Source: an uncultured Candidatus Saccharibacteria bacterium (GTDB taxonomy: Bacteria > Patescibacteriota > Minisyncoccia > Minisyncoccales > Staskawiczbacteraceae). From it: a stretch of 64,000 bases of DNA. The stretch spans positions 71,489 through 135,488 of the forward strand of contig CAYZNK010000002.1 of NCBI GenBank assembly GCA_964479955.1. The letters run 5' to 3'. Below the pieces are notes generated by a model. It saw only the letters and a list, made by a program, of their open reading frames with translations. It was not told the origin of the DNA and did not search any database. Shown in pieces: positions 5,671-62,591 of this stretch. A program made the position numbers and the translations under genes. Every line of letters starts with the position of its first letter. The stretch's first letter is position 1.

Positions 5671-5982
5671 ATGGCAAATATTGAAAAAAGAGACCCTGTG
5701 CTGGTTGTTATTTTAAGTATAATCACACTGGGCATATACATAATTTACTGGTTTGTAAAAACCAAAGAAGAAATGAAATCCCTTGGAGCCGATATTCCAA
5801 CAGCTTGGTTGATAATAGTTCCTGTTGCCAATGTTTATCTGCTTTATAAATACTGTGAAGGGTTTTCTGTTTATGTTAAAAAAGATAATATGGGGTCCGT
5901 ATGGTTTTTAGTTGCCTTGGCAATCCATATTTTAATAATTCCAATTATTCAAGTTGAGTTAAATAAATTGGCAGAAGCTTAA
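5671..5982 (+). CDS. small membrane protein (DUF4234-like)
   Basis: 103 aa with 3 TMs. The ILSIITLGIYIIYWF motif resembles DUF4234. Confidence 0.5.
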   Translation: MANIEKRDPVLVVILSIITLGIYIIYWFVKTKEEMKSLGADIPTAWLIIVPVANVYLLYKYCEGFSVYVKKDNMGSVWFLVALAIHILIIPIIQVELNKLAEA

Positions 5983-5985
5983 TTT

Positions 5986-6897
5986 ATGGCTTATTGGCTG
6001 ATTGTTATAATAATAGCGTATTTCTTTTTTGCTCTGTCTGCTCTTGGGGATAAGCTTGTTTTGGCTGGCCCCGCAAACCCCAAGGCATATGTGTTTTATG
6101 TTGGGTTATTGAGCATACTGGCTGTTTTTTTGATTCCGTTCGTTGGAATTAAAATTCCCACAACGGGCATGTTTTTTCTGATTGCACTTGATGCAATTAT
6201 TTTTTATATTGCTTTGTATTTTGGGTTTGTGGCAGTTGAAAAATTTGAGATTTCAAGGGTTGCTGTAACAATAGGGGCAACCCAGCCCATATTTATATTT
6301 TTTGTTTCATGGATTTTTTGGGGGTACCAGGGAATTGGATTTTTGGGATTTTTGGCGTTTATTTTTTTGTTTTTAGGAAGCATTATTGTTTCTTTTGACA
6401 AGAAGCTGGAATTTAAAAACAAATACCTGGCGCTTACTCTTTTTGCATCATTGATGTATTCTTTTGATTATTTGATGTCAAAATACATTTTTGAATATTT
6501 TTCCTTTTGGCACGGAATAATATTCAAAAGCGTATTTTTATTTTTAATTTCCATTAGCTTAATTTTAATAAAAAAGAACAGGCAGGAAATCTTAAAGAAA
6601 AATAAAAATTCAGAAAAACAGAAATCATTTGGCAAGTTATTTTTAGCAACGCAGGCATGCGGGGCAGGGGCTAATGTTTTGCAGAGTTTTGCTATTTTTC
6701 TAACGCCGGTGGGATTTTTGCCGGTTTTAAATTCATTAAGGGGATTGCAATATATTTTCTTGTTTACATTTACTTTGTTTATAACGCGTTTTTTCCCTAA
6801 AATCCTCAAAGAAAAAATTTCAAAGAAAACAATAACCAGAAAGGCATTTTCCATTCTTTTAATTATTCTTGGCCTGACGGCTTTGATTTTTTGCTAA
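5986..6897 (+). CDS. polytopic membrane protein, DMT/EamA-like
   Basis: 303 aa with about 10 hydrophobic helices. The family call is tentative. Confidence 0.45.
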   Translation: MAYWLIVIIIAYFFFALSALGDKLVLAGPANPKAYVFYVGLLSILAVFLIPFVGIKIPTTGMFFLIALDAIIFYIALYFGFVAVEKFEISRVAVTIGATQPIFIFFVSWIFWGYQGIGFLGFLAFIFLFLGSIIVSFDKKLEFKNKYLALTLFASLMYSFDYLMSKYIFEYFSFWHGIIFKSVFLFLISISLILIKKNRQEILKKNKNSEKQKSFGKLFLATQACGAGANVLQSFAIFLTPVGFLPVLNSLRGLQYIFLFTFTLFITRFFPKILKEKISKKTITRKAFSILLIILGLTALIFC

Positions 6898-6954
6898 ATA
6901 TTGACTTTAAGTGATTTTTTTATTAACCTATTATTAATCTAAACAAATTGAGCA

Positions 6955-7134
6955 AGCGTGCTTTTCCGGGGTGGCTTGGCAGATTCTTACCCCTTGACAT
7001 GCCAGAAGGTTAGGACCCTCCAAATTTTCCTGACTTTCTTTTGCCAGCCACCCTTTTGTTCTTTAAGGTTCCGCCCTTGGGCGGGTCCATCTTGCCCCGG
7101 GCCGCTGTGTCTTTATGACCCAGCGGCCTTTTTT
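6955..7134 (+). ncRNA. candidate structured small RNA, class unknown
   Basis: GC-rich island in an AT-rich spacer. Contains the helix ggggtggcttggcag/ctgccagccaccc and the hairpin ccgccc-ttg-ggcgg. Terminator is ggccgctg...cagcggcc plus T6 (7099-7134). Confidence 0.45.
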
Positions 7135-7179
7135 GATGAAATCTGAAAAATCTCACAGATTTGATTTACAGACAAGGGA

Positions 7180-7207
7180 TTGACAATCTTTTTTGTTTTG
7201 GTATGAT
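7180..7207 (+). promoter_or_regulatory. sigma70-type promoter
   Basis: TTGACA, 16-nt spacer, TATGAT. Confidence 0.55.
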
Positions 7208-7213
7208 TAAGAT

Positions 7214-7362
7214 AAACATCCTTGTGGGTGTGCTGGCGAACGGCGCTTGGAGCCCTTGCGCAGCCCTAGGCAAGGGCTCCTCTTTGCACTTTTATATTTC
7301 CTAATCATTCCGCTTTGAGCGGATTGCGTTCATTCTGGGGGTGCTGAAAAGTTCAGTACCCC
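7214..7362 (+). ncRNA. candidate structured small RNA, class unknown
   Basis: Lies downstream of the promoter above. Hairpins ggagcccttgc...gcaagggctcc and ccgc-tttga-gcgg. Strong terminator gggggtgctgaa-aa-gttcagtaccccc plus T-run. Confidence 0.5.
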
Positions 7363-7406
7363 CTATTTTTTTATAAAAAAAAGAAATAAAATAAAACTTT
7401 TATCAG

Positions 7407-7435
7407 TTGACCAACCTATATTTTTTTGTTAAAAT
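7407..7435 (+). promoter_or_regulatory. sigma70-type promoter of the tRNA-Ile locus
   Basis: TTGACC, 17-nt spacer, TAAAAT. Confidence 0.5.
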
Positions 7436-7455
7436 TTAAACAGGTTTTGTTGCTT

Positions 7456-7482
7456 GGGCATTAATTCAGTGGTAGAACGCTG
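7456..7482 (+). pseudogene. tRNA-Ile 5' fragment (positions about 1-28)
   Basis: gggcattaattcagtggtagaacgctg versus the gene's gggcgattagttcagtggtagaacgctg (1 indel, 1 mismatch). Confidence 0.7.
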
Positions 7483-7502
7483 AACTGGTTAGTGGAAATG
7501 GT

Positions 7503-7577
7503 GGGCGATTAGTTCAGTGGTAGAACGCTGTCCTGATAAGACAGAGGTCAAAGGTCCGATTCCTTTATCGCCCACCA
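7503..7577 (+). tRNA. tRNA-Ile(GAU), CCA encoded
   Basis: Acceptor gggcgat/atcgccc, anticodon arm ctgtc-ctGATaa-gacag, T arm aaagg-tccgatt-ccttt. 75 nt. Confidence 0.85.
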
Positions 7578-7622
7578 TTTCCACTAAAAGCGCACATATA
7601 AAAAATAAATAAAAAAGCTTTG

Positions 7623-7663
7623 TAAGACAGAGGCCAAAAGTCCGATTCCTTTATCGCCCACCA
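7623..7663 (+). pseudogene. tRNA-Ile 3' fragment (positions about 37-76 including CCA)
   Basis: taagacagaggccaaaagtccgattcctttatcgcccacca has 2 mismatches to 7537-7577. Confidence 0.75.
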
Positions 7664-7688
7664 AAGTTTTAAAAAACAAAACAAAAAT

Positions 7689-8033
7689 ATGAACAAAAAA
7701 AATCTTATAATATTATTAGCTGTTTTGGTTTTAGTATTGATTGTGGGGTTATTTTTGTTTAAAACTTTTGAAAACAATAATTCTGGAGTTGAAAATTCAC
7801 TTGGCGGAGCCAATACAGAATCTTTAAATAATGAAGATGAAAATCAAAATGAGACAACGCCGCAAATACAGGTAGAAGCAGAAGGACAAACGGGTCAGGG
7901 GGAGCTTCTTATTTGCGTTGACGAGTGCGGAAACGGGATTTGCCAAGAGCCTGCCCCGGATTGCGGAGAAGATGGAACTTATAACTGCGTATGCCCGGAA
8001 AATCCAGAGATTTGTCCGCAGGATTGTAATTAA
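7689..8033 (+). CDS. secreted or anchored small protein with a Cys-rich C-terminal module
   Basis: 114 aa with a signal/anchor. There are 9 Cys in the last 40 residues (CVDECGNGICQ...CPENPEICPQDCN). A terminator follows at 8040-8062. Confidence 0.65.
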   Translation: MNKKNLIILLAVLVLVLIVGLFLFKTFENNNSGVENSLGGANTESLNNEDENQNETTPQIQVEAEGQTGQGELLICVDECGNGICQEPAPDCGEDGTYNCVCPENPEICPQDCN

Positions 8034-25088: not shown

Positions 25089-26123
25089 ATGTACGATATT
25101 ATAACTTTTGGGTCAGCGGCGCAGGATATAGGGATAAAATCAAAGGACTTTAAGGTTTTTGGAGATAATAAAGAATTTGCAACCGGGCAGGGGATTTGTT
25201 TTACGCTTGGTTCAAAGATAAACATTCAGGATATAAGCTTTACGTCAGGGGGAGGGGGGAGCAATGTTGCTGTTGCCTTTGCAAGGCAGGGTTTTAAAAT
25301 CGCTTTTTGCGGAGCGGTTGGGGCAGACAATACCGGCAGAGAAATAATAAAGGAATTAAAAAAAGAAAAAGTGGATGTTAGATTTGTGGTTGAAAAAAAA
25401 GAAAAACAAACAAATCAATCAATCATAATTTTTGATGAAAGCCAGGAGAGGACAATTTTAACATATAGGGGGGCGGCAGAATTATTGACAAGAGAAGATA
25501 TTCCATGGAAAAAAATAAAAGCAAGATGGATATATTTGGCTCCCATGACCGGTTTATTGTGCCTGCCTGACGGCAGACAGACGACACTCTTTGAAGATAT
25601 TGTTAACTTTGCCGCTGAAAATAAGATTAAAATTGCAATCAATCCTTCAAAACAGCAGTTGTCTCTGCCTGAAAATATGTTAAAAAATATTTTGCAAAAA
25701 ACAGATGTCTTGTTTTTAAATCAGGAGGAAGCGTCTTTTTTGACAAAGATTCCTTTTGAAAATGAAGAAGAAATTTTTAAAAAGACAGATGAATTGTGTT
25801 CCGGTGTTGTTGTTATGACAAAAGGCGGCCAGGGAGTTGTTGTTTCAGACGGTAAATATCTTTATTCTGCTTTGCCCAATAATGACAGAAAAATTGTTGA
25901 CACAACGGGGGCAGGAGATTCTTTTGCCGCAGGGTTTTTATCTGACTACATAAGACATAACGGAGATATAGAAAAATCCATACAATTTGGACTTGCAAAT
26001 TCAGAGGCAAATTTGGCAGAAGTTGGAGCAAAAACAGGGCTCTTAAAAAAAGGAGATAATTTTAGCAGGGTTAATGTTGCCAAAGAAGATTGCGGGGAAA
26101 ATAATTTATGCATAAAAAAATAA
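25089..26123 (+). CDS. PfkB-family carbohydrate kinase
   Basis: VDTTGAGDSFAAGF signature. Confidence 0.75.
   Translation: MYDIITFGSAAQDIGIKSKDFKVFGDNKEFATGQGICFTLGSKINIQDISFTSGGGGSNVAVAFARQGFKIAFCGAVGADNTGREIIKELKKEKVDVRFVVEKKEKQTNQSIIIFDESQERTILTYRGAAELLTREDIPWKKIKARWIYLAPMTGLLCLPDGRQTTLFEDIVNFAAENKIKIAINPSKQQLSLPENMLKNILQKTDVLFLNQEEASFLTKIPFENEEEIFKKTDELCSGVVVMTKGGQGVVVSDGKYLYSALPNNDRKIVDTTGAGDSFAAGFLSDYIRHNGDIEKSIQFGLANSEANLAEVGAKTGLLKKGDNFSRVNVAKEDCGENNLCIKK
25562..25586 (+). repeat. CCTGCCTG...CAGRCAGR palindromic element, copy inside the kinase CDS
   Basis: cctgcctgacggcagacagacgaca, translated in frame as CLPDGRQTT. Confidence 0.65.
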
Positions 26124-35713: not shown

Positions 35714-36094
35714 ACATATATAACAATTAAAAACATAAAGACAAAATCACTATATATTCTTCCCGTCATTGCGGGATCCCCCGCTAAGCGGGGGAAAAAC
35801 TAAACAGCGTTTTAAGAATATCCGTGAAGGCAGGTTTTAAAGGTCTGTCTTCACGGGTATTTTTTCTTCTTGGCTGAACGGAAAGCCTTTTGATAATTGA
35901 ATAATGGAAACCAGTTTTAAAAACTGGGAAAAAATTGAATTAGCGGAGTGTCCACAGTACTGAAAATTTCTACGAAAATTTTAGCGCTGAGAGAATTCAC
36001 TTCGTGTAATTCGTTTCTTAAAGTTGTTTCGAATCAAAGCTTGTCGAGTGCTTAACTCGACAGTAGTTTATTCTAACTAGAGTAATCAACTTTT

Positions 36095-37556
36095 TTTTGA
36101 GAGTTTGATCCTAGCTCAGGGTGAACGCTGGTAACGTGGATACCGGCATGCAAGTCGAGCGGACCGCAAGGTCAGCGGCGAACGGCATAGTAACACGTGG
36201 GTACAAACCCTTTTCTCGGGTATAGCCAGCCGAAAGGTTGGGTAATTCCCGATAGTTCTCGCAAGAGTAAAGTCGCAAGACGGAAAAGGATTGGCCCGCG
36301 GCCTATCAGATTGTTGGCAGGGTAACGGCCTACCAAGTCTATGACGGGTAGGGGGCGTGAGAGCGCGACCCCCATGAATGGCACTGCGACACGGGCCATA
36401 CTCCTACGGGAGGCTGCAGTCGAGAATCTTCCGCAATGGGCGAAAGCCTGACGGAGCGACGTTACGTGAATGAAGAAGCCCTTCGGGGTGTAAAGTTCTT
36501 TTATGTGGGAATAAGTTATTGAAGGTACCACATGAATAAGAGGATCCTAATTCTGTGCCAGCAGGAGCGGTAATACAGAATCCTCAAGCGTTACCCGGAT
36601 TTATTGGGCGTAAAGGGTCCGTAGGTGGTAAAGTAAGTTTTGAGTTAAACCTCATCGGCTTAACCTTTGAGCTATTCAAAATACTGCTTTACTTGAGGGC
36701 GTTATGGGTGAACGGAACCGACGGAGTAGGGGTGAAATCCGTTGATATCGTCGGGAACACCAAAAGCGAAGGCAGTTCACTGGGGCGACCCTGACACTGA
36801 GGGACGAAAGCGTGGGTAGCAAAAAGGATTAGATACCCTTGTAGTCCACGCCGTAAATGATGAATACTAGCTATTGGCAGTGTCGACCCTGCCAGTGGCG
36901 AAGCTAACGCGTTAAGTATTCCGCCTAGGAAGTACGGTGGCAACACTAAAACTCAAAGGAATAGACGGGGACTCACACAAGCGGTGGACCATGTGGCTTA
37001 ATTCGACAACAAACGAAGAACCTTACCAGGTCTAGAAATCTGCATGAAAGCCTTCAGAAACGTTGGCCCTTCACAAGACATGCAGACAGGTGCTGCATGG
37101 TTGTCGTCAGTTCGTGTCTTGAGACGTACCGTTAATTCGGGTAACGAACGCAACCCTTGCCGTGTGTTTTAAATGTCACACGGGACTGCCCGAGATAATT
37201 GGGAGGAAGGCGAGGATGACGCCAAATCAGCATGGCCCTTTGATGACCTGGGCCGCACACGTGGTACAATGGCCGGTACAATGGGTTTCGATGCCGCAAG
37301 GCGGAGATTAATCTCATCAAAACCGGTCTCAGTTCGGATTGAGGGCTGAAACCCGCCCTCATGAAGCTGGAATCGCTAGTAATCGCCAATCAGCTATGTG
37401 GCGATGAATACGTTCCTGAGTCTTGTACTCACCGCCCGTCAAGCCAAGCGAGCTGGGGATAGCCGAAGTGCCCGCAAGGGCCCTAAGCTAGATTCAGTAA
37501 GAGGGGCTAAGTCGTAACAAGGCACGGCTAGCGGAAGCTGGTCGTAGATCATTTTT
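36095..37556 (+). rRNA. rrs: 16S rRNA (stand-alone; no linked tRNA or 23S)
   Basis: Starts near gagagtttgatcctagctcag and ends ...aagtcgtaacaaggcacggctagcggaagctggtcgtagatcattttttt. Flanked by a processing stem (36013-36036 pairs with 37690-37713) and a terminator at about 37762-37790. Confidence 0.9.
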
Positions 37557-37840
37557 TTAAAATTTTGTATAGAAACCTTTTGGTTTATATACAAAATGGA
37601 ATGTAGTCGGCTCAGAGTGATTCGATAAACTCAGTTCGATGAGTATATCGAATTGTTCTGAAGCATTTTAGCAGATTTGCTTGAAAATCGCATTCGAAAC
37701 AACTTTAAGAAACTAATTTTTCCACAGAAAAATTATCCTGAGATTTTCGAAGGGTAAGACATTACTCCGTCAAAAGCGGAGTTTTGTTTTGATTAAGGTT
37801 GTTCTTGAAAATTAGTTGGAAAAGAATTAAGCTATCTTAT

Positions 37841-43120: not shown

Positions 43121-43187
43121 TTTTTTTATTGCAATTTTATAAAATAAAAGTTAAATTAAATAAATTGAAATATGAGCTTATCAATTC
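43121..43187 (+). repeat. duplicated copy of the ychF promoter and first 5 codons (decayed copy)
   Basis: About 65 nt with 4 mismatches to 43669-43733. It reads ATGAGCTTATCAATT and then diverges to a stop. Confidence 0.8.
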
Positions 43188-43370
43188 AGCTTTGTGATTA
43201 AAATCCTACCGCGGAGATATGAAAAAATTATAACAAGTCGAGACGAATAGGAAAGAATCGTTCATTTAATATTGGTTTGATAGGGTGATGCTTGGTTGAC
43301 ATTAGCGATTTCAAGTGATAAAGTTTTAATTGGCTCTTCTTAACTCTAAACAAGAAAGGAAAGGTGAGTC

Positions 43371-43610
43371 ATGGCAAATAAAATGCCAACAGTTTATCAA
43401 CTTATACCGCCACTCGCGGTAAGAATGACCCAAGAAGTTCACATCGGAATGGGCCCTGAAGGATTTTCCCTCAAAAAGCACGAACGAGGAATTGCTTCTG
43501 GTACTCTCGGATTTTGCACAATCGAAGGGAGACCCAGATTGGGATTCCAGGTCACTTTCGCGGGTTTGGACTTTGTTCTTCCACAAGAGTTCATAGAGCT
43601 CGTTCCGTAA
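43371..43610 (+). CDS. orphan small protein (GC-richer cassette)
   Basis: 79 aa with aggaaaggtgag just before the ATG. Promoter TTGACA-17-TAAAGT at 43296-43324. Terminator ggggtggctgaacagtcaccc plus T-run. Confidence 0.6.
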   Translation: MANKMPTVYQLIPPLAVRMTQEVHIGMGPEGFSLKKHERGIASGTLGFCTIEGRPRLGFQVTFAGLDFVLPQEFIELVP

Positions 43611-43668
43611 TAAAGTGAATCTCAATCCTTCCATGGTTTGTGCCTATGGGGTGGCTGAACAGTCACCC

Positions 43669-43733
43669 TTTTTTATTGCAATTTTGTGAAATAAAAGTTA
43701 AATTAAATGAATTGAAATATGAGTTTATCAATT
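43669..43733 (+). repeat. native copy of the duplicated ychF 5' region
   Basis: See 43121-43187. Confidence 0.8.
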
Positions 43734-44932: not shown

Positions 44933-45235
44933 ATGGAATTTACTATCAATAATATAGAAGAAAATGTTGTAGTTGTTGCCAGGAGAATTGGTTATTTGAT
45001 TATTGATACAAAAGAAAATGGGGAATATAATTTAGTTAGGAGATTAACGCAGGGAAATTATCCAAGGTTTCATATTTACGCAAAAGTTCAGGGAGATAAA
45101 TATATTTTTAGTTTGCACTTAGACCAAAAAGCTCCCATATATAAAGGGAGTCATGCGCACAGCGGAGAATATGCCGGGCCTGTTGTGGACGCTGAAGCAG
45201 ATAGAATTTGCGAAGTGTTAGGAAAATCAGAATAA
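44933..45235 (+). CDS. hypothetical protein
   Basis: 100-aa ORF with AT-rich backbone composition. No family recognised. Confidence 0.55.
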   Translation: MEFTINNIEENVVVVARRIGYLIIDTKENGEYNLVRRLTQGNYPRFHIYAKVQGDKYIFSLHLDQKAPIYKGSHAHSGEYAGPVVDAEADRICEVLGKSE

Positions 45236-45370
45236 AACCCTATCACCAATTTCAGCCAAGTTAAAAGGTAAGATATACTTTGAAGGCGAAGTGCCTTCGG
45301 CTGTTAATTTTGTAATATAAAGTCAGCGGTGAAATTGGTGAGGGGTTATTGCGACGGTAAGGTATAAATC
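45236..45370. repeat. hairpin-core element, copy A
   Basis: About 80% identical by eye to 57591-57732. Terminal inverted repeat is aaccctatcaccaatttc / gaaattggtgaggggtt, and the inner hairpin is gaagg-cgaagtg-ccttc. Confidence 0.75.
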
Positions 45371-45499
45371 CTTCGACTTCGCTCAGGCCTTCGGCTCTGA
45401 TAGTCTCGGACTCGAAGAGATATTTTCTGCGGAAAATAAAAGCCCTGCAAACCGTAGAAGAGCAGTGAGCAGGGCATAAAGAAGGATGAATCCGACGGA

Positions 45500-45823
45500 T
45501 TATTCAACGTATCCGCAAGAGTTTTCAATGGAGTAGTAAAGAGTGATTTCTGCACCCTCCTTGATCTTTTCGTGACAGAATTCTCCTTTGCAAGATAATC
45601 CTTTTATCCTGCAGACCAATTTGAAAAGCTGGAATTTGGTTTCGTCAAAGACGATAGACATCACCTCTGCTGAAATGGCAGTTGACTTCTCCTGATAAGA
45701 CAGGAAGAAAACAGGAAGATTTCCGGGACGCCTTTTAATGAGGGCTTCCCATAAGGGTAGGTTGGTTGGACCGTCTTTGACCAAGATTTTTTCCGTTTCT
45801 ATTTCCAATGCGGCGTTACTCAT
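45500..45823 (-). CDS. orphan hypothetical protein (GC-richer cassette)
   Basis: 107 aa with agggaga 5 nt before the ATG. Terminator gccctgc...gcagggc plus T-run at 45440-45478 (minus strand). Confidence 0.65.
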   Translation of the reverse strand: MSNAALEIETEKILVKDGPTNLPLWEALIKRRPGNLPVFFLSYQEKSTAISAEVMSIVFDETKFQLFKLVCRIKGLSCKGEFCHEKIKEGAEITLYYSIENSCGYVE

Positions 45824-45871
45824 TGCAATCTCCCTAAAGAGCGTGTTTTGTAAATTTACTCCCTATTATTT

Positions 45872-45900
45872 ATTATATCATAATAAAATACCTATGTCAA
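45872..45900 (-). promoter_or_regulatory. consensus sigma70-type promoter of cassette 45500..45823
   Basis: On the minus strand: TTGACA, 17-nt spacer, TATAAT. Confidence 0.65.
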
Positions 45901-45947: not shown

Positions 45948-46760
45948 ATGAATTTATATAATCTAAAGCAAAAATACAGCCAGTATGATGAAGATTCAAT
46001 ATTAAAAGTTTTATATGAAGATAATCATATAATTGCCGTTGTAAAGCCAGCTAGTGTTTTAACGCAAGCTGATGGGTCAGGAGAAAAATGTTTAATGGAC
46101 ATTGTTAAAGATTATTTAAAAGAAAAATATAAAAAACCGGGAAATATTTTTTTGGGATTGGTGCATAGGTTAGACAAGCCGGTGCAGGGGATTGTGCTGT
46201 TTGCAAAAACTTCAAAAGGGGCTTCAAGGCTGTCAGAGCAGTTTAGAAACCACACTATACAAAAAACTTACCACGCTGTTGTTTTTGGCAAGCCAAAAAT
46301 GGACAAGGGAGAAATTAAAGAAAAAATAAATAAAATTTCTTTTTTTGCAGAAGGCTTTGCAGAAAAATCAGATAAAGAGCTTTTGGAAGAAATTAAAAAG
46401 GCAACAAAAACAAGGACAGCTGAGCTTAGCTGGGAAGTTATAAAATGTGGAAAACCCTTCGACACGGCTCAGGGCAAAAGTTGTTACACACTTTTGAAAG
46501 TTTTACCAAAGACCGGAAGGTTTCATCAAATAAGGGTGCAAATGGCAAATATGGGAAACCCTATTTTGGGAGATAGAAAATATATCCCCGATTCTATTAC
46601 CTGCCTGTCCGGCAGGCAGGTGCGACAAACTAAAGATATATGGAAAGATGAAAAATCAATTGCGCTGGCTGCTACGGGAATTGTTTTTAAAACAGCCACA
46701 GGAGATAAACAAATCAGCTTGGAAATTCCTTTACCTGAAGAATGGAAAAAATATATATAG
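45948..46760 (+). CDS. RluA-family pseudouridine synthase
   Basis: HRLDKPVQGIVLFAKT catalytic motif and FHQIRVQM. Carries two GC-rich in-frame inserts. Confidence 0.8.
   Translation: MNLYNLKQKYSQYDEDSILKVLYEDNHIIAVVKPASVLTQADGSGEKCLMDIVKDYLKEKYKKPGNIFLGLVHRLDKPVQGIVLFAKTSKGASRLSEQFRNHTIQKTYHAVVFGKPKMDKGEIKEKINKISFFAEGFAEKSDKELLEEIKKATKTRTAELSWEVIKCGKPFDTAQGKSCYTLLKVLPKTGRFHQIRVQMANMGNPILGDRKYIPDSITCLSGRQVRQTKDIWKDEKSIALAATGIVFKTATGDKQISLEIPLPEEWKKYI
46600..46629 (+). repeat. CCTGCCTG...CAGGCAGG palindromic element, copy inside the RluA-family CDS
   Basis: cctgcctg-tccgg-caggcagg-tgcgacaaa with a 9-bp perfect stem, translated as CLSGRQVRQ. Confidence 0.7.
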
Positions 46761-48374: not shown

Positions 48375-49020
48375 ATAATTACATGATGAAAAAACAAACC
48401 AATAAATTTAACAAAACAAGCGGATGATTGTCTGACTTTTTGTGTTAGTAGATGACCGCTTGAATAAGCGGTTTTAAATTTATTGAAAATCAGTTTGCCG
48501 GCGATTGAAAATATAAATTGTTTTCAGCCGCGGGTTAATTGATTGAAGCGGAAGCAAAGATTGCTTTTTGAAAATTTAACCCTGTTAAATGTTTTAAATA
48601 ACAAATTGCCTACCAGCAATTTTTAACAGGTTCTTCCCAATTAATTTTAGACATGGGGTCTTTTTAATTGGGGAAAGTAGGTAAGTCCTGTTAAAATTTT
48701 AACAGGATAAAGCATAAAATTAAGTTCACATTTGCGTTGATGATTCAGCGCAAAAAAGTAAACTTACGCAAAAAGATAAGCTTAACAATTAAGTTTATCG
48801 AAGGATAGGTTATAAGCGAATGGCGGATGCCTTGGGATATTGATGCGATGAAGGACGTGGCGTGCCTGCGATAAGCATCGGGGAGGTGGCTAGCAACCTT
48901 TGATCCGGTGATTTCCGAATGGGAAAACCTTATTGTGTTAATCCACAATAACCCCGCCTTGGCGGGGAGCGTACCCGGTGAAGTGAAACATCTCAGTAGC
49001 CGGAGGAAAAGAGAACAAAA

Positions 49021-49289
49021 GTCCTACAACTTACAAATTTTATCAATTTAGCGAAGCGAATTTTGAGACAAATTCGCGACGCGAGGAGCAGTGCGTGCCA
49101 AGTGGCACGAGAGCGACGAAGCAACAAAGAATTTGGCCAAAATTCGTTCGCCCGAAGGGAAACGAAAAAAATGGCTGATTTCTTTGTTGCAACTTCGTTA
49201 ACGTAGTTAACACTATGTTTCCTCGTTGCGCCTCGAAATCATCACATTTTTTCGTTTCTAAATATGACGAAATTTGTAAGTTGTAGGAC
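49021..49289 (+). other. 23S insertion sequence 1 (IVS-like), closed by a 20-bp perfect helix
   Basis: gtcctacaacttacaaattt (49021-40) pairs with aaatttgtaagttgtaggac (49270-89). It lies between GAGGAAAAGA and AGTAGTGGCGAGCGAA. Confidence 0.75.
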
Positions 49290-49346
49290 AAGTTATATCC
49301 TTAGTAGTGGCGAGCGAAAAGGATACAGCCTAAACTAATTTTTTTA

Positions 49347-49505
49347 CACCGCTACTTTTTGATAATTTTCGTAACGAAATAAAATAATTTTGCGCGAGAA
49401 TTTGGAAATGCAAGGAGGTTTGCCAAGTGGCAAGCCGACGAGCAGTTACAAATTTGTAGCCGAAATTATTAATTGCAGTAGAAAAGTTATCAGAAAGTAG
49501 CGGTG
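49347..49505 (+). other. 23S insertion sequence 2 (IVS-like), closed by a 19-bp helix
   Basis: caccgctactttttgataa pairs with ttatcagaaagtagcggtg (one G-U pair). It shares a gccaagtggca...cgacga.gca block with insertion 1. Confidence 0.7.
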
Positions 49506-49861
49506 AAATTAGGGTTGTAAGGTTGTAGCGTCAGGAGCGTTATTTATTCTTCGTATAGTCGAAGAACGAATAATGCTTGCTGAGAGAGAAAATTTAGATA
49601 AAGGTTTTAATAGAAGCACTCTGGAAAGAGGCGCCATAGAAGGTAATAGCCCTGTATATAAAAAAACTATTTATGCTCTTTGCTATGATACTTGAGTACT
49701 GTCGGGCATGATAACCTGGCAGGAATCTACCGGAACTATCCGGTAAGGCTAAATAATCAATATCACCGATAGTGAACCAGTACCGTGAGGGAAAGGTGAA
49801 AAGCAGGGGGTTGACCCCGATGAAATAGTACCTGAAACCATTTGCTTACAAAGAGTCGGAG

Positions 49862-49943
49862 GTCTTCACCTTTTGGGTGTTGAGTTTAATTGTGGAACAA
49901 AACAATTTCCACAAAAATAATTTGACCTTCAAAAGGTGAAGAC
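49862..49943 (+). other. 23S insertion sequence 3 in the helix-25 region
   Basis: gtcttcacctttt pairs with aaaaggtgaagac, a 13-bp perfect stem. Confidence 0.7.
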
Positions 49944-50586
49944 TGACGGCGTGCTTTTTGTAGAACGAGCCAACGAGTTTGAATAATCAATAGTCTAAGC
50001 CCTTACGGGGCGGAGGCACAGCGAAAGCGAGTGTTAAAAGCGCGAAAAATTATATTGGTTGTTCAAGACCCGAAGCCAGACGAGCTTACCGCGAGCAGGA
50101 TGAACCCGGGCGAAAGCCAGGGGGAGGTCCGAACCAGTGAGTCGTGCAATTCTCTTGGATGACTTGTGGTAAGGAGTGAAAAGCTAATCGAGTTTGGTAA
50201 TAGCTGGTTCTTCCCGAAACAGCTTTGGGGCTGGCGTGTACAAACTATTTTCCGGGGGTAGAGCACTGAATAGAATTCCGTGGAGTTTCTCCAGGTCTTC
50301 TAATCAAACTCCGAATACCGGAAAAACTATGTATGCAGTAAGAACGCGGGGGCTAAGCTCCGCGCTCAAAACGGAAACAGCCGAGATCATCGTCTAAGGT
50401 CCCTAAATTAGGCTAAGTGCTAAGAAGGAGGTATTTTACCCTTGACAGGCAGAAAGTTAGCTTAGAGGTAGCTATCTTTTAAAGAGTGTGTAACAACCCA
50501 CTGCCCAAACTTTCCCGCTTGCGGGAGAGAGGGGTGAGATGCGCCAAAGATTTCCGGGGCTAAAGTCTAATACCGAAGACATGGAT

Positions 50587-50712
50587 TCATTCGCATCACA
50601 CTGCGTGTGATGTTAAATGACCAAAAACCAAAAACCAAAAATATTTAATATTTTGGGATTTGAGAATTGGAATTTGGGAATTTAAGCATCGTGCGAAGCG
50701 CGATGCGAGTGA
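50587..50712 (+). other. 23S insertion sequence 4 in the helix-45 region
   Basis: tcattcgcatc pairs with gatgcgagtga. It contains a CA-repeat / UG-repeat hairpin (50621-50683). Confidence 0.65.
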
Positions 50713-51003
50713 GTGGTAGGGAAGCATTCTGAGGGCATTGAAGCAGGAGGGTAACCGACTGTGGAGCGCTCAGAAGAGAGAATGTTGGCCTGAGTAACCG
50801 CATTGCGCGTGAAAGCCGCGCACACCGAAAGTCCAAGGTTTCCTTGGCAATGGTATTCAACCAAGGGTTAGGCGGTCCTAAGGCAAACCTGAAAGGGGTA
50901 GCTGACGGACAGTTGGTTAATATTCCAACCCTTTTTTATCCGTTCAATAAAGTGCGGAATTTAGTAGGTAAAGCGATTTATTGGATTATCGTTGTTAGTC
51001 AGA

Positions 51004-51030
51004 CCTGTCTGCCGTCAGGCAGGCGCAAGA
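51004..51030 (+). repeat. CCTGYCTG...CAGGCAGG palindromic element, copy inside 23S
   Basis: cctgtctg-ccgt-caggcagg-cgcaaga. Confidence 0.6.
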
Positions 51031-51420
51031 ATGGCTAACGGAAGGTCTCTTTATGGGGCTGACTTTACTGAGCAAGTTTCCAAGAAAAGCTTTATTTAAA
51101 TAGGATAAAGAAACCGTACCGTAAACCGACACAGGTGGACAAGCGTAAGTATGCTAAGGTGAACGGGTGAAACCTCGTTAAGGAACTCGGCAAATCAGTG
51201 GCCGTAAGTTCGCAATATGGCCTGCCCGACACGCAAGTGTTTAGGGCTGCAACAAACGTACTTCAACCGACTGTTTATCAAAAACACAGCTCTCTGCTAA
51301 CTCGTAAGAGGATGTATAGGGGGTGAGGCCTGACCAGTGTTGGAATGTTAAGTTTGGGGGTCCAAGCCGCAAGGTTTGGGCTCACTGAATGAAGCACCAA
51401 TGAACGTCGGCGATAACTAT

Positions 51421-52151
51421 AGACTGACGATTGTAGTTATAAAATTTGGCTATATGCTGGAAACTCCGGGTATGTTGAACTACTATCCGTTACTATGATA
51501 AAATATATAGTAATGGAAGTAAAAATGTTTAAACGCGGACAATCAGCAGGAAAGACTTTTGACGAGAAACTCGCTAACTACTTGAGCGGTTTTACTGATG
51601 GCGAAGGAAGCTTCAATATTTCAGTAATTAATCGTGAGAAAGACTATAAACACGGCTGGAAAATCAGCTTGTGTTTCAATATTTCTCAAAAAGATGACAC
51701 AATACCAAGATTATTTAAGGATTTTCTTGATTGCGGTAAAATAAGATACCGCAAAGATGGAATTTGTTATTTTGATGTTAGAAAAACAAAAGATTTAACA
51801 AATATTGTTGTGCCATTCTTTAAAAAATTTCCAGTGCGTTCAAAGAAAAATGAAACTTTTCAGATTTTTTGTGAGGCGTTGGAGATTGTTAAATGTAAAA
51901 AACATTTAACAAAATCCGGAATGAAAAAAATTCTGGATTTGAGAAATAAAATTGTAGTTGGCAGAAAAAGAAAGTATACAAATTCAGAGATACTTTCTAC
52001 TTATAATCAAAAGAATCCTCAGAGACTATACGCCAAACCCCGCTTAGCGGGGAAGATATAGTCCGACCTGCATAGCGATATGCAGAATATAATAGAAATA
52101 TTATATCAAGATACTAAAACTGACTTAATTTAGTATTAGTAACATAAAAAG
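51421..52151 (+). mobile_element. group I intron in the helix-69 loop (after the U equivalent to E. coli U1917)
   Basis: The exon ends ...gataactaT and resumes aatcgtccaaaggtagcg. Intron guide gtagttat (51433-40) pairs with the 8 exon nt ataactat via G-U at the splice site. The intron ends in G and has the core motif aagatatagtccgacc. Confidence 0.8.
51495..52061 (+). CDS. LAGLIDADG homing endonuclease (intron-encoded)
   Basis: YLSGFTDGEGSFNISV motif. The ORF lies inside intron 1 and ends within the core motif. Confidence 0.8.
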   Translation: MIKYIVMEVKMFKRGQSAGKTFDEKLANYLSGFTDGEGSFNISVINREKDYKHGWKISLCFNISQKDDTIPRLFKDFLDCGKIRYRKDGICYFDVRKTKDLTNIVVPFFKKFPVRSKKNETFQIFCEALEIVKCKKHLTKSGMKKILDLRNKIVVGRKRKYTNSEILSTYNQKNPQRLYAKPRLAGKI

Positions 52152-52815
52152 AATCGTCCAAAGGTAGCGTAATCCCTTGCCGGGTAAGTTCCGGCCCGCA
52201 TGAATGGCTTAACGAGTTGAAGACTGTCTCAACGAGGTGCCCGGTGAAAATGCAATAGCAGTGAAGATGCTGCTTACCTGCGGCTAGACGGGAAGACCCC
52301 GGAAGCTTTACTGTAGTTTGATATTGGGTTATGGTTTTTAATGCGTAGCGTAGTGGGGAGGATATGAAACGGCATTTTCGGATGTCGCGGATCCGCCAAT
52401 GAAACACCCATCTTTGGGAATTATAATTCTAATCCACGCCTCAACGGCGGGTGACAGTGTTAAACGGGCAGTTTAAGTGGGGCACTTGCCTCCTAAAAAG
52501 TAATGGAGGCGTTTAAAGGTCAGCTAGCTTCGGATGGAAATCGAAGCGATAGTGTAAAGGCAAAAGCTGGCTTTACTGCAAGACGGCTATGTCACGCAGT
52601 TGCGAAAGCAGAACTTAGTGAACCGACTTGTTTTTATAGAAAACAAGAAGATCATCAGCCAAAAGCTACTCCGGGGATAACAGGCTGGTAGAGCCCGAGC
52701 GTCCATAGCGACGGCTCTGTTCGGCACCTCGATGTCGGCTCAACTTATCCTGGGGCTGGAGCAGGTCCCAAGGGTCCGGCTGTTCGCCGGTTAAAAAGTT
52801 ACGCGAGCTGGGTTC

Positions 52816-52846
<31 letters not shown>

Positions 52847-52884
52847 ACCGCAGGCGTTGAGTTTTGAGGAGATTTGTTCCTAGT

Positions 52885-57495: not shown

Positions 57496-57503
57496 ATTTA
57501 TTG

Positions 57504-57533
57504 CCTGCCTGCCGGTAGGCAGGTACGACAAAA
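57504..57533 (+). repeat. CCTGCCTG...AGGCAGG palindromic element, intergenic copy
   Basis: cctgcct-gccggt-aggcagg-tacgacaaaa. Confidence 0.65.
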
Positions 57534-57590
57534 TAGTCATTGCGGTTTCTGACACCGCAATGACTATTTTTATTTGCAGCAGATAAAATA

Positions 57591-57732
57591 AACCCCATCA
57601 CCAATTTCATTCAAATAAAAGGTAAGACATAGTTTTGAAAGGCGAAGCGCTTTCGGCTGTCAGTGTTGCGATACAAAGTCAGTGGTAAAATTGGTGAGGG
57701 GTTTTGCGGCGGTAAATGTAATTATCCGCCGC
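57591..57732. repeat. hairpin-core element, copy B
   Basis: Terminal inverted repeat aaccccatcaccaatttc / aaaattggtgaggggtt and inner hairpin gaaag-gcgaagcg-ctttc. Homologous to 45236-45370. Confidence 0.75.
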
Positions 57733-58449
57733 AAAAAAAAGAGCGCCGTGCTATGCTCTTCCCAGTGCCGCCTTATGGAATTGGGCGGGGATTTTTTAAG
57801 GGTGAGCGATAAACACGGCGCAAAATGCAGCAAAGCCTCATTTTCGAGAGCTCGTAGGGATAGGGTTTTCCACCATAACAGGTACCGTCCCCGTAGCCCA
57901 ACATCACTGCATTTGAATGATAGACTGACAGGAGGCCCGCTTGTGCACAACAACGGGCTTTTGTGTTTGCGTTCTTGCCGCAGGCAAACTCTTTACGGGC
58001 GGTACAATATTTCCGCCGGTTGAAGCTGTGCCACACTAAGTTGGCCAAATATCAAACCGTGTGGATGGGATGCCCCATTTGCTCTGCTCAACTGCGTCTA
58101 GGAGCATAATGGGATATTCTGGGCTGATCCTTCACTTCCGCTAGATCCCGCGAACTTAGTTGAGCTGAGTTGCGATACGCAAGGTAAGTGAAGGACTGCA
58201 TCAGCGCAGTAGAATTTTTCCAATTTCACGGTAGTCGCTATAGGATGCGAAATCCTGCCAACTCCCTGTCAGTCTTGTATGAAAAGTGCATGCGAGTTTC
58301 TTGCTTGGTCCTTTACAGGATGGGGAGAAACTCTATTTTTTGTTTTGCAACACTAGTCTGTACCCCAAAACTAGCGAAGATTCCAGCTGTCTTTTTTTCG
58401 AGGCATCTCCCGCCGGAATTTACGGAAATGCACGCTATTTTGAAAAGAT
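57733..58449 (-). ncRNA. candidate ~700-nt non-coding transcript, or a decayed cassette; class unknown
   Basis: GC-richer block with a minus-strand promoter at 58456-58484 and a weak stem plus U8 at 57733-57759. It has only overlapping 90-113 aa ORFs on both strands with non-protein-like sequences. Several long-range helices are present (for example tccttcactt / aagtgaagga). Confidence 0.4.
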
Positions 58450-58455
58450 GTTTTT

Positions 58456-58484
58456 ATCTTAGCATATAGCAATTCTCCTGTCAA
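58456..58484 (-). promoter_or_regulatory. sigma70-type promoter driving the 58449->57733 unit
   Basis: On the minus strand: TTGACA, 17-nt spacer, TAAGAT. A second TTGACA lies 20 nt upstream. Confidence 0.55.
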
Positions 58485-58600
58485 GGGTTGTGCTAGTTTG
58501 TCAAGTTTGTTATTATTAATAAAATAAAATATTTAAAAAAATAAAAATATAATTATTTAGCAGAAAGTTGATTTTTAAAGTTGAATTTCTGCTACCCGAT

Positions 58601-60058: not shown

Positions 60059-60123
60059 AACTAAATCGCGAATTAAACGCCTCATACTGGTCCGCCGACT
60101 GGCGGATGAGGCGTTTGTGTTGC

Positions 60124-60378
60124 TTAAAATAGTAAAAAAAAGCCCCTTTTGCAAACTCGGGGCATAAAAGAGGCAACTTGATGTATTCCGCAAAAATTTT
60201 CTTTTCCGGCAGTTTCAATAATTTTTTGCCAGAAAAGAGATATGAGGAATATTGCGAGCGCGTTAAAGAACAAAATCTTGGGCACCCATAACAGAGAGAC
60301 AGGAGCATGATGCTCCAAAGCTATCCCTGCTACTACATAACTGATTGAAACTGCGCAGGTGATGAGATTTTTTTTCAT
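60124..60378 (-). CDS. small two-TM protein, paralog 1
   Basis: 84 aa with gggggaag before the ATG and promoter TTGACA-17-TATTAT. Loop motif ALEHHAPV. Caveat: the 3' end overlaps a terminator-like hairpin. Confidence 0.45.
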   Translation of the reverse strand: MKKNLITCAVSISYVVAGIALEHHAPVSLLWVPKILFFNALAIFLISLFWQKIIETAGKENFCGIHQVASFMPRVCKRGFFLLF

Positions 60379-60436
60379 TTTTCTTCCCCCGTTGAGTGTT
60401 CTGTATATTTTATAATATTATGTGTTAAGTTTTTTG

Positions 60437-60622
60437 TCAAGGGTTTGGCTGGATTTTTTTTATTGTTAGAATTGTAATCCAGAGACCAAAGAATATTGAG
60501 GTTAAAATAATGGCCTCATCCCACCAGCAGTCCGGAGTTTTGAGAGGCGATAAAGAAAGGATGAATAAAAAGTATATGATCAGAACTGAAATCATTAGGG
60601 TTGTTTTGAGGAAAACGGACAT
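60437..60622 (-). CDS. small two-TM protein, paralog 2
   Basis: 61 aa with tggaga before the ATG and the same TM-loop-TM layout. Confidence 0.45.
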   Translation of the reverse strand: MSVFLKTTLMISVLIIYFLFILSLSPLKTPDCWWDEAIILTSIFFGLWITILTIKKIQPNP

Positions 60623-60801
60623 GATTATGTCTCCAGGTAAAGATATAAATTAAATTGTCCAACGAGCTGTTTTTATTTTATTATTTATAAAGTATTTGTG
60701 TCAAGCATATGCAAAAAAAGACCCCGTAAAATCGCTTGCGCTATTGCGGGGTATATAATAAGGCCGATAGGCCACCTTTTGTTGGGACATTTTTGCCATA
60801 T

Positions 60802-61113
60802 CTAATTTATCTGGAGTAGGCGGTCGTATTTCTCGCAATAACTATTTGGCAAACCGCAGCAAGAGAGGTAGCGAAGTTTCTTTTGGCTAATCGGAAACAC
60901 TTCGCCACATTTATTGCACCGGAAGGTTTCTCCAATTTTCACGATTTTGGCAAACAAAAACTTGACTACCGGTATGCCGCCAAACAGGACAGTTATAACC
61001 AAACATGCGTCAATAATCGGCACCGGAGTATGTATTTCCAGCGCAAGAGTCAGGAGAACAAACCATCCAACGAGCATCAATGTCACCAGGGTAATCTTCA
61101 GGATTTCAAGCAT
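60802..61113 (-). CDS. small two-TM protein with a C-terminal Cys cluster, paralog 3
   Basis: 103 aa with aaggaaaag before the ATG. Loop motif ALEIHTPV, then CNKC...CC...C. Terminator accccg...cggggt plus T7. Confidence 0.55.
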   Translation of the reverse strand: MLEILKITLVTLMLVGWFVLLTLALEIHTPVPIIDACLVITVLFGGIPVVKFLFAKIVKIGETFRCNKCGEVFPISQKKLRYLSCCGLPNSYCEKYDRLLQIN

Positions 61114-61343
61114 CGTCTTTTCCTTTTAAAATAGGGGATTGTATGTTAAAGTTCAATATATTTTTATATCATATCTTTTATTTATTAGTCAAGATGTTGT
61201 AGGGTTTGTTTAACTTTGATATTATAAATAAATAATGTAATTTTATAAGATAAATAGAAGTTGCCCCTCGCCCCTCGTCGCTTTGCTCCTCGGGGTTTGC
61301 TGACCTGCGGGCTCGGGACGATTTCTTACTTCGTAGAAATCGC

Positions 61344-62591
61344 ATGTTAGATATTAATTTTATAAGAAATAACCCAGACAAAGTTAAACAGGCCTGCAAG
61401 AATAAAAATGTCCAAATTAGCGTTGAGCTGGTTTTGGATTTGGATAAAGAAAAAAGACAATTGCTTACAGAGATTGAAAATTTAAAGGCAGAACAAAATA
61501 AAATTTCAAGGGGAGGAAAGGACAACAAAGTTTTAATTAGCCAGGCAAAAGAAATAAAAGAAAAAATAAAATCCCTGGAACCTGATTTGGAAAGGGTTGA
61601 CTTGGAATTTAAAGATTTGCTTTTGCAGTTGCCCAACATTCCGTTTGAAGATGCACCCGTTGGCAAGGATGATTCTGAAAATGTTATTGTGCGACAAGTC
61701 GGGAAAAAACCAATTTATTTGGGATTCAAGCCAAAAGACTATATGGAATTGGGAGAAAAGTTAGATGTTATTGATACTGAAAGAGCAGGAAAAGTTGCGG
61801 GTTCAAGATTCGGATATTTAAAGGGTTCTTTGCCTTTGCTTGAATTTGCTTTAATAAAATTGGTAATGGACACAGTGATAAAAGAGGGGTTTATACCTGT
61901 GATTCCTCCTGTTATGCTAAAAAATCAAATGGCAAGAGGTACGGGATATTTTGAGGCAGCTGACGAAAAAGAGGCATATTATTTGCCGCAAGATGATATG
62001 TATTTGGCAGGAACTTCGGAGCAGTCGCTGGTTTCAATGCACGCAAACGAAATTTTAGAATTAAAAAATTTGCCAAAAAGATATGTTGGGTTCTCAACAT
62101 GTTTTAGAAGAGAAGCGGGGAGTTATGGAAAAGATACAAGGGGAATTTTAAGGGTCCACCAGTTTGATAAGCTGGAAATGGTAATTTTTTCAAAGCCGGA
62201 AGACTCAAAAGAAGAACATAAATTGCTTTTATCAATCGAAGAAAAATTGATGAAAGCTTTAAAATTGCCTTATCGGGTTATAAATATTTGCACAGGAGAT
62301 TTAGGAAGGCCGGCTGCAAAAAAATATGACATTGAAACATGGCTACCATCAGAAGGAAAATACAGGGAAACGCATTCTTGTTCAAACTGCACGGACTTTC
62401 AAGCAAGAAGACTGAATATAAGATGTAAAGATGGTAAAAATAAAATAAATTTTGTACATACACTAAATGGAACAGCTTTTGCAATAGGAAGAATTTTAAT
62501 AATGATAATGGAAAATTATCAGCAGAGAGACGGTTCAATAAAGGTGCCGAAGGTTTTGCAAAAATACGCAGGAATAAAAAAAATAAAATAG
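61344..62591 (+). CDS. serS: serine-tRNA ligase
   Basis: N-terminal coiled coil, FRREAGSYGKDTRG and TLNGTA motifs. Confidence 0.9.
   Translation: MLDINFIRNNPDKVKQACKNKNVQISVELVLDLDKEKRQLLTEIENLKAEQNKISRGGKDNKVLISQAKEIKEKIKSLEPDLERVDLEFKDLLLQLPNIPFEDAPVGKDDSENVIVRQVGKKPIYLGFKPKDYMELGEKLDVIDTERAGKVAGSRFGYLKGSLPLLEFALIKLVMDTVIKEGFIPVIPPVMLKNQMARGTGYFEAADEKEAYYLPQDDMYLAGTSEQSLVSMHANEILELKNLPKRYVGFSTCFRREAGSYGKDTRGILRVHQFDKLEMVIFSKPEDSKEEHKLLLSIEEKLMKALKLPYRVINICTGDLGRPAAKKYDIETWLPSEGKYRETHSCSNCTDFQARRLNIRCKDGKNKINFVHTLNGTAFAIGRILIMIMENYQQRDGSIKVPKVLQKYAGIKKIK

Follow-up and report, generated by a model that had tools for sequence, protein, structure and literature searches.

A multi-copy hairpin repeat placed beside intrinsic terminators in Patescibacteria, and the small gene next to one of its copies

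In a 64,000-nt stretch of contig CAYZNK010000002.1 (assembly GCA_964479955.1; we call the whole stretch the window), a minus-strand gene for a 107-aa protein converges on a plus-strand gene for a 100-aa protein, and the space between them holds the terminator of the former and a palindromic element, element A, that starts directly after the stop codon of the latter. A sequence-only reading of this locus had described that arrangement correctly and proposed that gene, terminator and element form a cassette, with the element marking its boundary. Do they travel together, or did they meet at this spot independently? Our data lean towards the second answer, in which three independent things lie side by side: the 107-aa gene, a non-autonomous repeat resembling miniature inverted-repeat transposable elements (MITEs), ERIC or REPIN sequences, and a GC-rich mini-repeat. 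The element belongs to a family that is multi-copy and keeps its stem base-paired through compensatory changes, and every canonical copy stands some 36 nt past the point where the T-run of a convergent intrinsic terminator ends.

The order of events at locus A can be read from related genomes. Our comparison covered the window and 33 further loci or contigs, about 300 kb in total, which carry labels of the form L0xx. In the closest relative (L026/L027, about 87% DNA identity), the A-run of the terminator lies only 22 nt from the point of divergence of the 100-aa gene, whereas the window has about 210 nt there (45223-45432); element A and the GC motif are therefore later insertions. The extra segment gives the 100-aa gene four new C-terminal codons and its stop, and otherwise consists of element A, a piece of an AT hairpin and the GC motif; the difference between the 100-aa gene and its orthologue, over the last four codons and stop, begins exactly with this segment. 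No element turned up in L026, L027 or L030 in a profile search, yet all of them keep the 107-aa gene with its promoter, Shine-Dalgarno (SD) sequence and terminator. The gene is thus older than the element or, at the least, does not depend on it. The simplest history, judged from these alignments, would put the 107-aa gene and its terminator first and the repeat afterwards. As a cassette boundary, then, the element has a recurring layout in its favor (see below) and locus A against it. In L028, a more distant relative, we read other small genes at the same spot, a HicAB-like pair among them, which makes this spacer a variable region.

Element A has a paralogue, element B, within the window. The two regions share 83% identity over 127 nt (second copy 57591-57715, E = 4e-31), and their homology runs through the 5' arm and loop of an AT-rich hairpin but not beyond, so the repeated unit ends before the terminator; the hairpin remnant that follows element A is homologous to the corresponding part of B and thus belongs to the repeated unit. 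We searched the arm pattern ATCACCAATTT-N65-95-AAATTGGTGAG in a collection of species-representative genomes and found copies in Staskawiczbacteria and in unclassified metagenome-assembled genomes (MAGs); the same pattern lengthened by two G's gave copies in 15 metagenome contigs. After removal of duplicates, 17 distinct canonical copies remained across the window, other MAGs and metagenome contigs, and a profile search, run on about 235 kb and later extended by about 70 kb, added one diverged copy (L011 10853-10964, hereafter L011b). Density is low, about one copy per 10-30 kb. The window has exactly two in its 64 kb, L016 has two within 4.5 kb and L011 two within 12 kb. Pattern matches in L004 (Lactobacillus) and L008 (Litorilituus) had no similarity outside the pattern and were dropped as chance. 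Neither the arm nor the core pattern matched anything in IMG/VR; we found no viral copies there and rejected a viral origin. The window is AT-rich (about 37% GC), its segment 43812-46188 is identical to a 2.4-kb Logan contig (L001), and among the few homologues of its proteins that carry a name, several belong to 'Candidatus Staskawiczbacteria' or Patescibacteria MAGs. We infer a Parcubacteria-type bacterium of the Candidate Phyla Radiation as the source.

The copies share a common anatomy. On the plus strand of the window, the 5' side consists of the stem AACCCC, a bulged A and UCACCAAUUUCA, followed by a variable segment of about 30 nt, the core GGCGAAGYG(..)CYUCGNCUGUC, a second variable segment and the 3' arm AAAUUGGUGA-GGGGUU. 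Terminal arms of 16-18 bp (AACCCCAUCACCAAUUU / AAAUUGGUGAGGGGUU) are present in all copies, and the core GCGAAGYG..C.GTC, which was not part of the search pattern, is invariant, with a 10-nt duplication inside it in some copies. The closing stem of element A has 6 bp, a bulged A and 12 bp (AACCCU-A-UCACCAAUUUCA / UGAAAUUGGUGA-GGGGUU) around the central core GGCGAAGUGCCUUCGGCUGU, and its predicted fold reaches -43.5 kcal/mol (z = -7.2). L011b lacks the bulge and, with two pairs changed in a compensatory way, still forms a perfect 16-bp stem, ACCCCCACACCAAUCU / AGAUUGGUGUGGGGGU. Apart from these, arm variants are limited to G·U pairs on the plus strand (A and L016b). RNAalifold supported the closing stem and a tiny core hairpin only. 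Summed over copies, fold energies were -620 kcal/mol for the plus strand vs -581 kcal/mol, a slight and inconsistent preference. Rfam gave no match at the gathering threshold across the whole window and only noise at E up to 10 at the two loci, and scans for tRNA and tmRNA found nothing at either. Most copies are followed by a U-rich tract, AUUUUNCUUUUU, whereas the sequence after copy A, AUUGCGACGG, is not rich in U.

An arms-only relative of the element (CCCAUCACCAAUUU / AAAUUGGUGAGGG) occurs in at least three species of Nomurabacteria and is transcribed in the opposite sense. It lies in the rpsK-rpsD spacer, where the arms CCCATCACCAATTT / AAATTGGTGAGGGA enclose an AT-rich interior of about 70 nt (L002 1219-1316, L007 2152-2249, L010 7784-7881; also L019, L023 and L024). 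It may be a domesticated old copy or an RNA structure of the r-protein operon.

All 17 canonical copies stand in one orientation at the end of a constant series: a convergent unit, a GC hairpin with its T-run, an AT hairpin of about 35 nt, and the element. Read outward from the 3' side of a copy, the AT-rich hairpin is followed by an A-run and the GC-rich hairpin, and these last two are the terminator of the convergent transcript. The stem of the AT hairpin differs between copies (ATTTTAC..GTAAAAT, GATTGGCA..TGCCAATC, TTGCGGCGG..CCGCCGCAA). Under a strict terminator test (perfect stem of at least 6 bp with at least 4 GC pairs, then 5 T's in 8 nt), 8 of the 17 copies passed, compared with 3.1% of background 130-nt windows, and in 6 of these 8 the T-run ends 34-38 nt from the element; most of the other copies have imperfect hairpins and T-runs, judged by eye. 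The terminators beside the copies are not homologous to one another, and the one at A is already there in the empty site. Fixed orientation and spacing together suggest structure-guided insertion or a strong filtering of tolerated sites in compact genomes.

The flanks of the element are asymmetric in composition. Over 500 nt, the terminator side averages 47% GC and the opposite side 37%, with the same sign at all 13 testable loci (Wilcoxon p = 0.0002). An all-against-all comparison of the neighbouring open reading frames (ORFs) of all loci found no shared family: they include an Ig-domain protein, a double zinc ribbon, a weak DUF4177 match and orphan ORFs, and elsewhere the neighbour is a set of tRNA genes (L006, L016), an IS110-like recombinase (L003) or, at B, a unit with no ORF. 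The expectation that elements go with orphan cassettes held insofar as a unit stands beside each of the 17 copies, but not for the cargo where this is tRNA or recombinase. On the upstream side, 9 of 15 copies follow a co-directional gene, in several cases with its stop codon abutting or inside the element, and 6 a divergent one. L011b sits between two co-directional genes, with no terminator-side unit. Arm-like half-sites at the far end of the units (up to 3 mismatches) occurred at chance level, 35 vs 41 expected.

We found that presence and absence of the element vary at orthologous sites. In the 16S-greA spacer, L006 has a copy together with two tRNA-like genes, and the window has 120 nt and no copy. 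The PBP2-lysS spacer contains the element in the window and in L022; in L034 it measures only 28 nt and lacks the entire block 57496-58600 (1.1 kb, element B included), and in L033 it holds a 188-aa gene with no element detected. If L026 comes from the same organism as L022/L031/L032, as we infer from their common sample, that organism carries B and not A. The proposed search for empty sites was thus productive, at A (L026/L027, L030), at 16S-greA (window) and at PBP2-lysS (L034). Gain and loss of site and cargo are mixed, with cargo lacking a site at A and both absent together at B and at the L006 site; this co-absence keeps a weaker form of the cassette idea alive. In the prfB-rpmE spacer, L018 has a copy, and the window has no element and a different small unit in its place.

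The lysS-serS spacer is a further spot of small-unit accumulation. It spans 1.3 kb in the window (60059-61344) and 1.2 kb in L031/L032; in the latter, three to four small ORFs are called, most of which run on the minus strand. In L033 and L034 the two genes are 10-146 nt apart.

What is the 107-aa gene? The signals ascribed to it from sequence alone, a consensus promoter, an AGGGAGA SD 5 nt ahead of the ATG and a GC-rich terminator with a U-run, are all present (Table 1), and its product indeed matches no family in Pfam or NCBIfam. The label "orphan" fits only in the sense of taxon-restricted, with 3 cluster representatives among 5.8 billion non-redundant database sequences; two relatives have orthologues. 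The three representatives occupy the same spot in three related genomes, with the gene order YchF, 100 aa, 107 aa (minus strand), RluA, MscS. The orthologues are 87% and 73% identical and unchanged in length, and substitutions at codon positions 1/2/3 number 7/6/20 and 20/14/43 in the two comparisons. The ORF is a genuine, taxon-restricted gene under purifying selection. L026 conserves the region from the -35 box through the 5' untranslated region (UTR) to the SD; L030 keeps TTGACA and TATAAT with an 18-nt spacer and has a similar 5' UTR and SD. The terminator stem-loop is conserved in both, and both are without the element. A structure predicted from 3 sequences reached a predicted local distance difference test score (pLDDT) of 46, too poor for a fold search. 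Among the named homologues of the convergent 100-aa protein, several are from Staskawiczbacteria. L030 has, in addition, a tiny unit between its 101-aa gene and the terminator of the 107-aa gene (3655-3940, minus strand). In this unit a hydrophobic ORF of 18 codons, MVITGLVAIAYVRWKDDW, stands between a TTGACA-17-TAAGCT promoter and a terminator; the unit recalls a type I toxin.

The neighbour of element B had been taken to carry the same cargo as the 107-aa unit, and this did not survive: by blastn and tblastx, the A and B units have only the element of about 125 nt in common, and the B unit has no credible ORF. What the two do share is the layout that had been pointed out, their own promoter, terminator and then element, and the order of unit, terminator and element recurs at the 17 canonical copies. 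The B unit has a TTGACA-17-TAAGAT promoter (58484..58456) and a terminator (57740-57759 followed by T8). Its small ORFs have no Pfam or NCBIfam match, and the unit has no Rfam match. The L022 orthologue keeps the promoter, the terminator and two sequence blocks, with the middle 400 nt or so replaced, and one hairpin differs by two compensatory pair changes (CCGCC..GGCGG vs CUACC..GGUAG). The B unit is probably an unclassified non-coding RNA.

The GC motif is separate from the element and landed inside the AT hairpin later. That it is dispersed, as had been noticed, is borne out by three matches to CCTTCGACNNNGCTCAGG in the window, at 45370, 46456 and 46810, vs 0.44 expected, and the motif also occurs in L011. 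At 46456-46482 the copy CCTTCGACACGGCTCAGGGC forms an in-frame insert of 9 aa in RluA (PFDTAQGKS region) that three orthologues lack. Such an in-frame repeat within a protein gene recalls Rickettsia palindromic elements, but the GC motif, at about 25-50 nt, is far shorter than those, rich in GC and without sequence relationship to them. The window RluA (45948..46760) also has a 7-aa insert, TCLSGRQ (about 46640-46665), again missing from three orthologues, and a 15-aa N-terminal extension. A second family of GC-rich mini-palindromes (TGCCTGCCTGNCGGCAGGCAG-like) occurs at 25554-25580, 51005-51031 and 57497-57520; the copy at 51005-51031 lies inside the 23S rRNA gene, and another directly follows the PBP2 stop codon.

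Table 1. Features at loci A and B, in window coordinates
Feature	Position	Strand	Evidence or remark
Convergent gene, 100 aa, widely conserved in the Candidate Phyla Radiation (CPR)	44933..45235	+	493 homologues
Element A, 112-nt palindromic repeat	45236..45347	+	starts right after the TAA of 44933..45235
Remnant of 5' arm and loop of AT-rich hairpin 2 at A	45348..45369	+	homologous to B 57704-57727
GC-rich mini-repeat copy, CCTTCGAC..GCTCAGG.., interrupting hairpin 2	45370..45419	+	
Short AT hairpin ATTTTC-TGCG-GAAAAT and A-run, which is the minus-strand T-run of the 107-aa gene's terminator	45420..45441	-	
Intrinsic terminator of the 107-aa gene, GCCCTGC-20 nt-GCAGGGC	45442-45475	-	followed by TTTTATTTT on the minus strand
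107-aa protein gene	45500..45823	-	orthologues in L026/L027 and L030
Sigma-70 promoter of the 107-aa gene, TTGACA-17-(TG)TATAAT	45872..45900	-	12/12 consensus match with TG extension
Element B, paralogous copy	57592..57703	+	
Intact hairpin 2 of copy B, TTTTGCGGCGG..CCGCCGCAAAA	57704..57736	+	
Neighbour of B, about 50% GC, about 700 nt	57740..58484	-	no credible ORF

How could a repeat of this kind have come to lie here? If gene, repeat and mini-repeat are independent, the repeat, a hairpin of about 112 nt with an AT hairpin of about 35 nt, would have inserted into a gap of only a few bases between two convergent genes, giving the 100-aa gene different final codons and a different stop. Copies would be mobilised in trans by an enzyme that reads the conserved arms, with their bulged base, and the core, and would either choose terminator-proximal sites or persist only there. 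Once inserted, the stem may serve the flanking transcripts as a terminator, an RNA-processing signal or a stabilising hairpin; at 18 bp or more and with a U-rich tract, it could end or stabilise the co-directional transcript and block antisense read-through. The bulged base, the absence of target duplications, the d(GCGAAGC) core and a Y1_Tnp gene near one copy hint at a mechanism involving single-stranded DNA. The d(GCGAAGC) sequence is found on the plus strand in the core of most copies and forms an extraordinarily stable single-stranded DNA mini-hairpin (PMC13037366). The gene for the Y1_Tnp-family protein (E = 2.7e-6) lies to one side only of the L009 copy, 0.7 kb away, and the window encodes none.

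Several observations weigh against independent insertion of a mobile repeat. We were unable to detect a transposase or partner gene with the same arms in the window and the 33 other loci, and we found no direct target-site duplications: the flanks, ..AAUAA on one side and UUAUU.. on the other, are inverted and extend the palindrome. Orientation relative to GC skew (8/18) showed no replication-strand bias of the kind expected for transposition through single-stranded DNA hairpins; this speaks against a single-stranded-DNA mechanism, as does the lack of a partner enzyme linked to the copies. In most copies arm conservation was imposed by the search pattern, so that the argument for selection on pairing comes mainly from L011b and the two G·U variants. 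Copy counts refer to the window and contigs rather than complete genomes. Finally, the GC-rich flank at 13 of 13 loci and the joint absence of element and neighbour at two loci could mean that they travel together.

Joint travel is the essence of an attC-like explanation, in which a convergent unit and its element form a mobile cassette placed in intergenic spacers by a site-specific recombinase. The element would then be the recombination site of a so far unrecognised CPR cassette system, situated one hairpin's length past the terminator of its unit in every case and read as folded single-stranded DNA by a recombinase acting in trans, which we regard as improbable; the cargo would be small self-contained units (a strong consensus promoter, a small ORF, tRNA or non-coding RNA, and a terminator) shuttled between housekeeping genes. 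The constant order of unit, terminator, hairpin of about 35 nt and element in 17 of 17 copies speaks for this, as do neighbours that are GC-richer than the genome (13/13) and unrelated between loci, like integron cassettes, the 1.1-kb block missing from PBP2-lysS in L034, the loss of both tRNAs and element from the 16S-greA spacer of the window, and a bulged base in the stem like that of folded attC sites. The 107-aa gene, however, is in place without the element in L026/L027 and L030, and the terminators beside the copies are non-homologous, with that at A predating the element in the empty site. The ends of the element on the strand of the unit, AAAUAAC-CCC and GGG-GUUUAUU, fit neither RYYYAAC nor GTTRRRY; copies form no tandem arrays, since 2-12 kb that include housekeeping genes separate one from the next; an integrase was not seen beside any copy, and the diverged L011b, between co-directional genes, has no such neighbour at all. 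We therefore consider cassette travel of this kind unlikely. A related idea reverses the roles and makes the element a landing pad, a host target of IS110/IS1111-type recombinases beside which GC-rich accessory units pile up. REP sequences are the target of IS621, and both the one-sided GC-rich flank and L003, with its IS110-like recombinase and GC-rich non-coding 3' region beside a copy, would fit. This recombinase is the only one among 17 loci, its IS110 similarity is weak (E = 0.022), some neighbours are native-looking tRNA operons, and at locus A the order is the opposite, gene before element; a landing pad seems very unlikely to us. The L003 unit itself (5960-7994, minus strand) encodes a GC-rich protein of 548 aa with motif-level similarity to IS110 (PDB 9mty) and no Pfam match, and its 3' non-coding stretch of about 390 nt, directly beside the element copy, is possibly a guide or bridge RNA.

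Alternatively, the hairpin could be a functional structured RNA that is selected rather than mobile, either a multi-copy small RNA gene or a hairpin that acts in cis within the 3' UTR as a terminator, a stabiliser or an RNase III site. Strong folding (z = -7.2 for copy A and -4.2), a conserved core and stem with a variable interior, the two stem variants that remain paired as G·U on the plus strand, the slightly better folding of that strand and the U-rich tract after most copies are consistent with such a role, as is the fact that 9 of 15 copies come directly after the 3' end of a co-directional gene, whose stop codon several of them touch or overlap. But no promoter is conserved upstream, where -10-like boxes lie too near the stem; 6 of the 15 copies are divergent from the upstream gene, and the Nomurabacteria relative in the rpsK-rpsD spacer is transcribed in the opposite sense. 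RNAalifold found no conserved interior structure, Rfam yielded no match, and presence or absence at orthologous sites would be unusual for an RNA that the cell needs. We judge a selected RNA rather unlikely, and return to the mobile repeat, independent of its neighbours, as the reading that we favor.

Beyond these loci, the window and its relatives show further traces of small insertions. At 43122-43733, a direct repeat of 65 nt (94% identity), made up of a terminator's trailing T-run, the promoter of ychF and its first five codons, surrounds a self-contained unit of 482 nt with a TTGACA-17-TAAAGT promoter, an SD, a 79-aa ORF (43371..43610) and a terminator. By our reading of L028, a like duplication of the 5' end of RluA surrounds the HicAB-like genes there; together these suggest that small units were inserted with target duplications of 60-90 nt. 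An intact tRNA-Ile gene (7503-7577) is flanked by partial duplications of its halves within 7451-7663 (7451-7492 vs 7499-7540, 79% identity; 7537-7577 vs 7623-7663, 95%), the kind of scar that integration at a tRNA gene leaves, and in L021 an element copy lies about 80 nt from the orthologous tRNA-Ile. Two hairpin-containing 59-nt copies of ATAATTTAAATGAGGAAGGAGTGAAAATAAATTTTCACTCC... (88% identity, 82 nt apart) occupy 3278-3418. The 16S gene (36093-37559) and the 23S gene (48803-52881) are separated by 11 kb of protein genes; the latter measures 4079 nt vs 2925 nt in the model and must therefore contain large insertions or introns. In L006, an interrupted 16S gene holds an ORF that we read as LAGLIDADG-like from its LTDGEGSF motif.

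These results matter for how small, compact CPR (Patescibacteria) genomes are viewed: their tight spacers do accept selfish or regulatory hairpin repeats, and such repeats can rewrite the C-terminus of a gene. The family also offers a handle on a wider pattern: between housekeeping genes, these genomes carry numerous small accessory units with strong promoters. As a practical tool, probes based on the conserved arms and core are well suited to typing strains and to locating variable spots in CPR metagenome bins.

Among known systems, the element is closest in form to hairpin repeats of other bacteria. Like ERIC/IRU (127 bp) and the Correia/NEMIS repeats of Neisseria, it is an imperfect palindrome of about 110-130 nt, non-coding and intergenic, frequent at gene 3' ends and variable at orthologous sites, with a stem that may act as a terminator or RNase III substrate. 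It differs from both in having no sequence similarity, no Correia-type TA or target-site duplication signature, a CPR host, a fixed position and orientation relative to a neighbouring terminator, and a conserved central GCGAAGC core. With REP/REPIN sequences, whose RAYT enzymes are IS200/IS605-type Y1 HUH proteins, it shares the nature of a hairpin-forming, non-autonomous extragenic repeat, an imperfect stem with an extrahelical base and the lack of target duplications; unlike them, it has arms without an internal palindrome, no GTAG-type 5' tetranucleotide, no RAYT flanked by copies, no replication-strand bias and a low density. Integron attC sites are likewise imperfect palindromes with a bulged base in the 57-141-nt class, 3' of a small unit transcribed towards them, and integron cassettes, like the neighbouring units here, are often ORFan and compositionally foreign; the element, however, has no R''/R' core sites, arrays or intI, and the units beside it supply promoter and terminator themselves. 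For their insertion, group IIC introns exploit the stem-loops of terminators, and the element resembles them in its fixed orientation immediately downstream of such stem-loops; it is only about 150 nt long, however, contains none of the intron domains (no Rfam match at E up to 10) and encodes no reverse transcriptase. Of the features of a MITE or dispersed repeat, it has terminal inverted repeats, several copies per stretch and insertion polymorphism between relatives, but not direct target-site duplications. In a lineage for which our literature search found no description of repeat families or MITE-like elements (CPR genomes), this is most likely a new family of the ERIC, Correia and REPIN kind.

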